From Escherichia coli (GTDB taxonomy: Bacteria > Pseudomonadota > Gammaproteobacteria > Enterobacterales > Enterobacteriaceae): a DNA stretch of 411 bases. The stretch lies in NCBI RefSeq assembly GCF_003334335.1, contig NZ_QOWQ01000194.1, one strand, 5' to 3'. A model generated the notes under the pieces. It worked only from the letters and a program-made list of their open reading frames with translations. It did no database searches and was not told the DNA's origin. Within the stretch, counting starts at the first letter, position 1, and the number at the start of each line of letters is the position of its first letter. A program made the position numbers and the translations under genes. Positions 1-411 of the stretch are shown here, piece after piece.

Positions 1-21
1 ATTGTGAAGTTAGTCACAAAA
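1..21. promoter_or_regulatory. Candidate CRP (cAMP receptor protein) binding site; core TGTGA-N6-TCACA at 3-18
   Basis: Seen in sequence: TGTGA at 3-7, 6-bp spacer agttag at 8-13, TCACA at 14-18. Both half-sites match the established CRP consensus with the canonical 6-bp spacing; the right flank is A-rich rather than T-rich. The left flank of the full 22-bp site runs off the window start. The target promoter and its orientation cannot be determined. Confidence 0.5.
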
Positions 22-42
22 AGAAGAAAGTCAAATAATCAA

Positions 43-72
43 ATTGTGCTTAACTGTTTACATCAGCACAAT
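43..72. repeat. Perfect 8-bp inverted repeat ATTGTGCT / AGCACAAT with 14-bp spacer
   Basis: Seen in sequence: 43-50 attgtgct and 65-72 agcacaat are exact reverse complements; spacer 51-64 is taactgtttacatc. No T-tract follows on either strand, so it is unlikely to be a terminator. It could be a protein-binding operator or an RNA hairpin. Confidence 0.6.
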
Positions 73-78
73 CTGATG
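61..78. repeat. Perfect 6-bp inverted repeat CATCAG / CTGATG with 6-bp spacer, overlapping the right arm of the 43-72 inverted repeat
   Basis: Seen in sequence: 61-66 catcag and 73-78 ctgatg are exact reverse complements; spacer 67-72 is cacaat. It shares bases 65-72 with the previous inverted repeat, so the two structures or sites are mutually exclusive. Confidence 0.55.
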
Positions 79-98
79 ACCATTGAATGACCATTGAA
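77..98. repeat. Perfect tandem direct repeat, 2 x 11 bp (tgaccattgaa tgaccattgaa)
   Basis: Seen in sequence: 77-87 and 88-98 are identical 11-mers in head-to-tail arrangement. An 11-bp period is about one helical turn, which places the two copies on the same DNA face; this is the arrangement used by direct-repeat-binding regulators such as OmpR/PhoB-family response regulators. No specific regulator is identified. Confidence 0.7.
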
Positions 99-133
99 GG
101 ACGCACTAAATTATTTTCAGCAATCCCTCAGCC

Positions 134-256
134 TACGAAAATTCTGCATCCCCTGAATGTTTAATTTACACTCTTTTTATGCAATTATTCTTTCGACTAT
201 AAAAACACCACTATCTCATGTATGACCTTGGGGAGCGTGCCGTCTCCCCGTTTTTT
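134..256 (+). ncRNA. Candidate small RNA, copy A (5' end not determined; 3' end at the intrinsic terminator)
   Basis: Inference: a non-coding region ending in a strong intrinsic terminator, with a duplicated paralogous unit downstream and a 13-nt block (134-146) perfectly conserved between copies. No convincing sigma70 -35/-10 pair was found; TATAAA at 198-203 and TAAATT at 107-112 are weak candidates, so the start coordinate is a placeholder. I could not match the sequence to any sRNA I can recall (Spot42, CyaR, McaS, OmrA/B, RyhB, RprA, MicF and others were compared from memory). Confidence 0.3.
230..256 (+). terminator. Rho-independent (intrinsic) terminator: 6-bp GC-rich stem, 8-nt loop, 6-T tract
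   Basis: Seen in sequence: GGGGAG 230-235 pairs with CTCCCC 244-249 (five G:C pairs and one A:T); loop cgtgccgt 236-243; g250 then tttttt 251-256. The - strand has no T-tract after the hairpin (it is followed by aaggtcat), so the terminator is oriented for + strand transcription. Confidence 0.6.
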
Positions 257-304
257 CGCTTACAGTTTCATGACGACTTTCAGTTTCAGGAATCAGCAGT
301 TACC

Positions 305-331
305 ATGCAATACGAAAATTCTGTATTGCAT
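305..331. repeat. Perfect 9-bp-arm palindrome ATGCAATAC-N9-GTATTGCAT, present in unit B only
   Basis: Seen in sequence: 305-313 atgcaatac and 323-331 gtattgcat are exact reverse complements; spacer 314-322 is gaaaattct. It overlaps the unit-B copy of the conserved 13-mer (311-323). The equivalent left arm in unit A (cagcctac, 129-136) does not pair with gcatcc. It could be a dimeric-regulator operator or a 5' stem-loop of RNA B. Confidence 0.6.
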
Positions 332-411
332 CCGCGCCCTCATCTCAATATCTTTGTCGCCGGATAAAAATAACTATCAACCACAAGTATCATGCTCTCG
401 GGGAGCACGCA
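311..411 (+). ncRNA. Candidate small RNA, copy B (paralog of copy A; 3' end lies beyond the window)
   Basis: Inference from the tandem duplication: the conserved 13-mer is at 311-323, the conserved A-rich block at 362-370, and the start of a terminator-like 5' stem arm GGGGAG is at 400-405 (ggggagcacgca, cut by the window end). The matching CTCCCC arm and T-tract would lie just past position 411. Confidence 0.25.

Follow-up and report, generated by a model that had tools for sequence, protein, structure and literature searches.

A repeated 16-nt box in tandem, terminator-bearing units upstream of the eib adhesin gene of Escherichia coli prophages: a candidate RNA or operator element

Introduction

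In the 411-nt stretch of Escherichia coli DNA analysed here (the window), a 13-mer, TACGAAAATTCTG, occurs in two exact copies on the + strand, one in each of two tandem units that are true diverged duplicates of each other. Based on the comparison of these units, we suggest that the repeated box, which is real, is probably functional. As to its mode of action, we tentatively take it to be an RNA-level recognition element within a CRP-linked + strand RNA, and we consider this reading somewhat likelier to be wrong than right. The preliminary description of this DNA had proposed that the block is the target-pairing seed of an RNA or, alternatively, a protein-binding site. The case for a seed is weak, the box could about equally well be an operator bound by a helix-turn-helix dimer, and the sequence by itself does not tell an RNA element from a protein-binding DNA site.

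Results

Genomic setting

Chromosomal prophage DNA 99.8% identical to the window is present at 71 places in 27 of the 5,426 complete E. coli genomes, and eight phage records (PhiR5_x, PhiR12_x and P-EibA of ECOR-9) match it at 87-97% identity. The elements that host it are prophages of E. coli, lambdoid or 933W-like. In them it is always found between eib, the gene of a YadA-type immunoglobulin-binding adhesin, and a tail-fibre-assembly gene (DUF4376), and it begins 254 nt upstream of the eib ATG. All genes within 6 kb on either side are on the - strand; since eib and the tail-fibre-assembly gene are both encoded there, the + strand of the window is antisense to them. Closer to eib, an inverted repeat with 11-bp arms, GAAATTCCGAA...TTCGGAATTTC, is located ~100-140 nt upstream of the ATG (L001 5847-5887). 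It is the annotated stem_loop in AF151091, and its ATTCC...GGAAT core recurs in other cassette types.

The window is undescribed in the sources that we searched. Under its E. coli matches RefSeq annotates no feature, the plasmid collection contained no match to it, and the unit B pattern gave no match in representative genomes of 100,044 species. When Rfam 15 was run on the window, the best E-values were 1.8-9.4 and belonged to unrelated snoRNA and frameshift models, and the 4 kb around the locus yielded no Rfam hits at E <= 1. In the literature searched, there is no description of the eib upstream region and none of these sequences, and cis-control of eib expression is described only as activation by IbrAB.

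Two homologous units closed by terminators

Units A and B (Table 1) are homologous over ~175 nt, with a global alignment score of 47 compared with 6.9 +/- 3.8 (maximum 24) for shuffles. Each ends in an intrinsic terminator on the + strand, which supports the preliminary interpretation. The terminator scan gave five hits, including an overlapping pair at terminator A, whereas shuffles gave 0.9 on average. Four terminator-like hairpins follow one another on the + strand (L001 6229-6546, window 229 to ~546), the last abutting the stop codon of the tail-fibre-assembly gene, and the scan found none on the - strand of the intergenic region. Since the terminators are confined to the + strand and all neighbouring genes are on the - strand, these hairpins imply local + strand transcription, and they would have a purpose only if it began within the intergenic region. 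Both units also contain an ACTAT box whose strand is ambiguous, reading TATAAA on the + strand and TATAGT/GATAGT on the - strand. The equal 177-bp register of the repeated box and the ACTAT box is probably coincidental, other blocks being found at offsets of 163-174.

Table 1. Features of the window and variability of its segments among 24 sequence variants
Feature	Position	Strand	Remark
Perfect CRP consensus site	3..18	.	TGTGA-N6-TCACA, TGTGAAGTTAGTCACA; read directly from the sequence
Candidate promoter	11..45	+	TAGTCA-17-AATAAT (-10 at 34-39) or -10 CAAATT (40-45)
Unit A	80..256	+	Homologous to unit B; ends in terminator A
13-mer, copy A	134..146	+	Usually the 16-mer 134-149; 3' edge of the near-invariant block 1-149
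Unit A candidate promoter	start near 179	+	CTGTAT-17-TACACT
A-rich ACTAT box, unit A	196..215	+	ACTATAAAAACACCACTATC; start of the deeper-conserved 3' module
Intrinsic terminator A	229..256	+	GGGGAG-loop-CTCCCC, then G, T6
Unit B	257..411	+	Cut by the window end; reaches ~427 in homologous loci
Perfect palindrome around copy B	305..331	.	ATGCAATAC-GAAAATTCT-GTATTGCAT; candidate RNA hairpin or DNA operator
13-mer, copy B	311..323	+	16-mer at 311-326
Unit B candidate promoter	start near 361	+	TTGCAT-17-TATCTT; palindrome centre at ~-43
ACTAT box, unit B	363..378	+	GATAAAAATAACTATC; counterpart of the unit A box
Intrinsic terminator B, start	399..411	+	GGGGAGCACGCACTCCCC AG T6; full 399-427, L001 6400-6427
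Segment 5' of 16-mer A	1..133		Variable columns 7.5%
16-mer A	134..149		Variable columns 6%
Segment between 16-mer A and unit B	150..256		Variable columns 27%
Segment 5' of 16-mer B	257..310		Variable columns 22%
16-mer B	311..326		Variable columns 6%
Segment 3' of 16-mer B	327..398		Variable columns 4% (least variable stretch)

Two further features of the window were noted. An 11-nt unit, ATGACCATTGA (window 76-97), is tandemly repeated with a varying copy number, namely one in most loci, two in the window, L001, L008 and L010, and three in L076. A small protein from the + strand ORF at 87-164 (25 aa) was rejected, as neither start, stop nor frame is conserved: the ATG is changed to ATA in the type II haplotype described below, the stop differs by haplotype, and the frame differs between units A and B.

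The repeated box

The 13-nt core is exact in both copies, at the positions first given for it, and no further copy is present in the window even when up to two mismatches are allowed. By chance 0.01 matches would be expected, and none of 200 dinucleotide shuffles gave two. The core had been called the longest exact identity between the units. This is correct and slightly understated, the identity between the copies in homologous loci being 16 nt, TACGAAAATTCTGTAT, rather than 13 nt. Copy A is the 16-mer in 23 of the 24 sequence variants, and the T-to-C at 147 is a minority change that is carried by the window and by phage PhiR5_2 (L002).

The main argument for function of the box comes from this paralogue comparison, in which the 16-nt run stands against a next-longest identical run of only 7 nt between A and B. 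The similarity of the flanks is close to random, 17 of 49 positions agreeing by hand count from the box to the ACTAT box, and the A/B alignment contains many indels, consistent with the earlier statement that the flanks diverged with indels. How improbable the run appears varies because the background identity assumed varies: with the 69% that the gapped alignment gives, an inflated figure, P is 0.11, and with roughly 50% it is ~1e-3 by our own estimate. When the box was compared with Rfam families, known operators and published sequences, no match was found. It was also rejected as a general phage motif, since 19-20 of 30 exact 16-mer stretches in IMG/VR are outside eib loci, have unrelated flanks and look like chance occurrences.

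Copy B lies within a perfect palindrome and copy A is predicted to be unstructured, both as originally noted. The arms of the palindrome (305-313 and 323-331) are 9 nt each, 100% complementary and separated by a 9-nt spacer, and copy B of the 13-mer takes in the whole spacer, together with 3 nt from the left arm and 1 nt from the right. When the RNA was folded, copy A fell in a 12-nt loop and is effectively unstructured because this loop is closed by 3 bp only. Copy B contributes 9 nt to the loop and 4 nt to the inner stem of a hairpin of 8-9 bp; the prediction leaves copy A open and exposes copy B in the loop. The fold z-scores, -0.59 for unit A and -1.75 for unit B, are not significant. No covariation or compensatory changes were seen among the variants, and in L020 the left palindrome arm is altered without compensation. 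The 17-mer ATACGAAAATTCTGTAT of copy B has six of eight symmetric pairs and copy A has five of eight (hand counts). Since the dyad is kept in copy A although its RNA stem would be only 3 bp, the symmetry is a better fit to a DNA site.

Conservation among eib prophages

We compared 24 distinct variants of the region, drawn from metagenomes, phages and E. coli genomes. Copy A is retained in all of them and intact in 23, and copy B is intact in 18, carries one substitution in one and is deleted in five. In the lineage with the substitution, the palindrome stem is altered as well, without compensation. The deletion spans 117 nt (window 213-329 equivalent) in L003, L010, L011, L019/L046 and L048, and P-EibA of ECOR-9 is included. 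It shows AT microhomology at the junction, removes terminator A together with copy B, and joins the 5' part of unit A to the 3' part of unit B. A second haplotype (type II; L004, L005, L008, L009 and L020) diverges by ~25-27% in 150-256, with a boundary that coincides with the end of the 16-mer and with a decayed terminator A (GGGGAG to GGG). The variation thus outlines conserved domains on the 5' side (1-149) and the 3' side (327-398), with a middle (150-310) that varies or can be deleted, an arrangement that would fit one transcription unit. Copy A is invariant among close loci and its surroundings are equally invariant; since the boxes lie at the inner edges of the two conserved domains, conservation among loci cannot single out the box.

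In other eib-like genes, found by anchoring loci on the Eib protein, only the first 150-165 nt upstream of the ATG are shared, at 70-75% identity, and the window sequence is missing. Since eib with its proximal 150-165 nt occurs without the window, the window is a separable module and not the eib core promoter. A published study found 168 bp upstream of eibG enough for plasmid complementation. Three of the loci examined (L028, L034 and L031) have a single antisense unit between eib and the tail-fibre-assembly gene, and its last 60 nt are homologous to units A and B. When the L028/L034 units were aligned with A and B, homology was confined to this 3' 60 nt, from ATAACTAT(A/C)AAC to the T-run (score ~25 vs 17.5 +/- 2.5), and the box region is absent from L028, L034 and L031. 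We designate the 3' module by its sequence, AACUAUCAACCACAAG, and the shared 3' ends define a small family of terminator-bearing modules. The terminator of L034 is GGGGAGCATCCGCTCCCC.

These comparisons bear directly on the proposed seed. The expectation that the block would be the most conserved part of homologous loci failed, only the 3' 60 nt being shared by the three distant loci. Lack of conservation in orthologous loci, named beforehand as evidence against the proposal, was seen in part, copy B being lost in five of 24 variants and mutated in one. As a seed, the box has in its favour that it stands out as the conserved element between the units; against this, it is missing in the distant homologues and copy B is dispensable. 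Since the distant homologues share the 3' module, the box is probably not the main seed of the family, and a family seed, if any, is more likely to be in the 3' module.

CRP site and the candidate + strand RNA

TAGTCA-17-AATAAT (11-39) is the only + strand sigma-70 match above the scan threshold, and it overlaps the perfect CRP site. When the weak CAAATT (3/6) is taken as the -10, the CRP centre is positioned at -41.5, which is class II spacing; the stronger AATAAT places CRP at -35.5. Copy A is downstream of this sole consensus-grade + strand promoter and could be in RNA, as had been supposed, and a + strand non-coding RNA containing copy A is plausible. For copy B we found no convincing promoter upstream, the best + strand candidate placing copy B at ~-50 to -38, in promoter DNA. 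A 13-nt inverted repeat (window 38-50 and 65-77; 12/13 complementary, 14-nt spacer) is invariant in all loci and overlaps the candidate + strand -10 and start, where it could be an operator or a 5' hairpin.

The arrangement recurs elsewhere. In three diverged cassette types, a CRP-like site with no more than one mismatch is located 257-269 nt away from the eib ATG. In L028/L032-L034 and L031, a -10-like hexamer on the antisense strand sets the CRP centre at -42.5 or -43.5, and a terminator is present 193-238 nt beyond the CRP-like site in three eib cassette types. We regard this recurrent layout across diverged sequence as the best evidence for a predicted CRP-linked + strand RNA of ~160-205 nt, and the spacing of the CRP site suggests catabolite control of eib and/or of the divergent RNA.

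Similar arrangements are known. CyaR, McaS and Spot 42 are CRP-controlled sRNAs, and at the eib locus a CRP site likewise lies upstream of a terminator-bounded non-coding stretch. The locus also resembles CRP class II promoters in its perfect TGTGA-N6-TCACA, its -10-like hexamer and its CRP centre at ~-41.5. This likeness concerns the neighbouring candidate promoter and not the 13-mer.

Discussion

A possible RNA-level element

Based on these observations, we propose the following model. The CRP-linked promoter (CRP site 3-18, start near 46-52) would drive a + strand non-coding RNA, which would end at terminator A (~205 nt) or read through to terminator B. Within this RNA copy A would occupy ~+83 to +101, where the fold is open, and copy B would be displayed in the read-through or extended RNA as a 9-nt loop, GAAAAUUCU, on a 9-bp hairpin. 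The box would then act as an exposed A/U-rich RNA element, through base pairing or through an RNA-binding protein. When the box was paired with the translation start region of eib, the duplex energy was -12.9 kcal/mol against a null of -9.5 +/- 2.5 (p = 0.09), which is not significant, and no near-perfect complement of the box was found in the 61.5-kb phage PhiR5_2.

Several families of sRNAs invite comparison. OmrA/OmrB, Qrr1-4 and PrrF1/2 are sibling sRNAs that share a seed, and this block is conserved among orthologues of different species and has mapped targets. They are alike to the present units in having one short identical block in otherwise diverged units; they differ in that the box at the eib locus is missing in distant homologous units and one copy is dispensable. 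Judged by analogy, the units look like a newly noticed prophage non-coding RNA locus of the accessory-gene-associated sRNA kind. Such short Hfq-binding sRNAs, AgvB/EcOnc01, AsxR/EcOnc02 and EcOnc03, have been described in association with prophage 'morons' of EHEC (Tree et al. 2014, PMC4104026). They too were unannotated terminator-bearing units adjoining an accessory gene of a lambdoid prophage, are convergent with or antisense to phage late genes, and exist as related copies in which the 3' part is conserved and the 5' part varies (PMC4104026). However, AgvB, AsxR and EcOnc03 follow PR' and are 51-60 nt long, whereas the RNA of the eib locus is predicted, follows the tail-fibre-assembly gene and would be ~160-205 nt. 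They also show no match to it in sequence or structure, and the Rfam models of AgvB, AsxR, Esr41 and STnc100 gave no match when run against the locus.

The Pas sRNAs (PasA-D) of EPEC prophages, which were validated by RIL-seq and Northern blots, are likewise intergenic in prophages, restricted to some Escherichia lineages, present as copy-number and sequence variants and provided with 3' intrinsic terminators (bioRxiv 10.64898/2026.05.13.724894). Their genes differ in location, being near Q, lysis or esterase genes or within structural operons, and the Pas paper leaves eib, YadA and tail-fibre genes unmentioned (bioRxiv 10.64898/2026.05.13.724894).

A possible DNA operator

Dyad symmetry is a reason to consider the box as DNA. 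A helix-turn-helix dimer might bind the 16-17 bp dyad (A/C)TAC-GAAAATTCT-GTAT once per unit and control the weak downstream promoters or the short 3' modules, with a NarL/FixJ-type regulator (host RcsB with or without ORF-156) or IbrA/IbrB as the binder. We consider this possible but rather doubtful. The protein-binding site first offered as the alternative to a seed is as likely as the seed itself; dyad symmetry speaks for it, and the box matches no known operator consensus. By eye, we know of no fit of the box to the consensus of sigma-54, sigma-28, LexA, Fur, ArgR, PurR, NarL, IHF, Fis or Lrp. The symmetry is kept where no stable hairpin would form, copy B extends to a perfect 27-bp palindrome, the box is outside the deeper-conserved 3' module, and in a position-weight scan the right arm of palindrome B becomes a -35. 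However, the candidate downstream promoters are weak, in the global A/B alignment the two units differ by 12-14 bp in how far the ACTAT box is from the repeated box, and copy B is dispensable. A CI/Cro-type repressor operator or a phage-wide motif was rejected, as a search of PhiR5_2 (61,526 bp) with up to two mismatches in the 13-mer and three in the 16-mer revealed no further copy. The lack of other copies in this phage, together with none beyond chance in other phage contexts, also counts against the operator reading.

A candidate binder is encoded nearby. Downstream of eib, each cassette encodes a 156-aa protein (ORF-156; L002 3928-4398 on the - strand, L001 4069-4542) whose AlphaFold model (pLDDT 90.5) matches full-length RcsB, EvgA, FixJ and DesR. 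The model comprises a receiver-like domain and a LuxR-type helix-turn-helix, and it lacks the acidic pair that usually closes strand 1. Pfam, NCBIfam and PHROG assigned no function to ORF-156 or ORF-60, and a PDB sequence search returned nothing. Since the model matches response regulators, ORF-156 is a candidate unannotated LuxR-type DNA-binding regulator. It is, however, present in every eib cassette type, box-less ones included, so that its co-occurrence lends no support to a link with the box; co-occurrence of ORF-156 variants with the box was likewise looked for and not seen. The genome of PhiR5_2 contains both the eib cassette and ibrA/ibrB (L023 25883-27696; PV340546.1 57883-59696), annotated as co-activators of prophage gene expression.

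Published RcsB and RcsAB boxes, TN(G/A)GAN4TC(T/C)NA and TaAGaatatTCctA, are pseudo-palindromes of ~14-16 bp with a GA-N4-TC core (PMC7913699, PMC3950696). The repeated box shares this size and core, and a protein with a predicted RcsB/EvgA fold is encoded in the eib cassette. When TACGAAAATTCTGT was compared with TN(G/A)GAN4TC(T/C)NA (PMC7913699), T, G, A, T, C and Y matched, and C at the R position and T at the final A did not. With six of eight specified positions matched, it is not an RcsB box by the published definition, and the resemblance, which is one of sequence, is weak evidence because the core is short.

It is an improbable extension of the operator reading that the boxes are the operators of a self-contained eib-cassette switch, in which ORF-156 with or without host RcsB, or IbrA/IbrB, would bind the dyads and, with CRP, set the balance between the divergent RNA and the adhesin. 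If true, such a switch would account for the way in which eib expression depends on strain background, which has long gone unexplained.

A possible relic or - strand element

The box could also be without function, as the best-preserved remnant of an old tandem duplication, with its conservation among loci due to recent ancestry and recombination between eib prophages. We consider this unlikely. The loci are all 87-100% identical, so that conservation among them weighs little, and the box, at 6%, varies as much as the conserved segments next to it (7.5% in 1-133 and 4% in 327-398). The P of 0.11 for the 16-nt run at gapped-alignment identity and the loss or mutation of copy B in six of 24 variants also agree with a relic. 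Neutral decay, however, does not predict the dyad symmetry and the perfect palindrome of copy B, and a relic would have to account for a run so much longer than the next-longest of 7 nt, set between flanks of near random similarity.

Alternatively, the box may belong to the - strand and serve the control of eib, either as an upstream element of a CRP-dependent distal promoter or within a long eib leader. Such a leader would start at TATAGT/GATAGT, the reverse complement of ACTAT(A/C), and would carry the box ~45-70 nt in. Both forms strike us as very unlikely. The distance of the CRP site to the eib ATG is kept in three cassette types, and two - strand promoter candidates are present, TTGACT-16-TAACTT, with a start near window position 0, and TTGAGT-17-GATAAT. 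In every variant (TATAGT, GATAGT and TATCGT), the ACTAT box read on the - strand retains A(-11) and T(-7), whereas the + strand reading (TATAAA, TATCAA) is without T(-7). Every T-run, however, follows its hairpin on the + strand only, the -35 regions for the - strand boxes are poor, and eib cassettes function without the window module, the 168 bp upstream of eibG having sufficed on a plasmid. The right half of the box and the arms of the inverted repeat near eib agree at 10 of 12 positions (hand count), but this similarity is at chance level (~0.1 expected, by our own estimate). A third, degenerate inverted copy of the box in that stem-loop, with 13 of 17 positions matching, was rejected on the same ground (~0.1 expected by chance, by our own estimate).

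Significance

In Shiga-toxin-producing and commensal E. coli, Eib proteins serve as factors of serum resistance and chain adhesion. The region upstream of their gene appears to hold three unannotated elements, namely a CRP site that is conserved in position, a non-coding unit divergent from eib, and the repeated dyad box. Should it prove to be an RNA element or an operator, the box would provide a direct handle on how a prophage adhesin is wired into the catabolite and envelope signalling of the host. If it is a relic, the locus would still be a candidate prophage sRNA gene.
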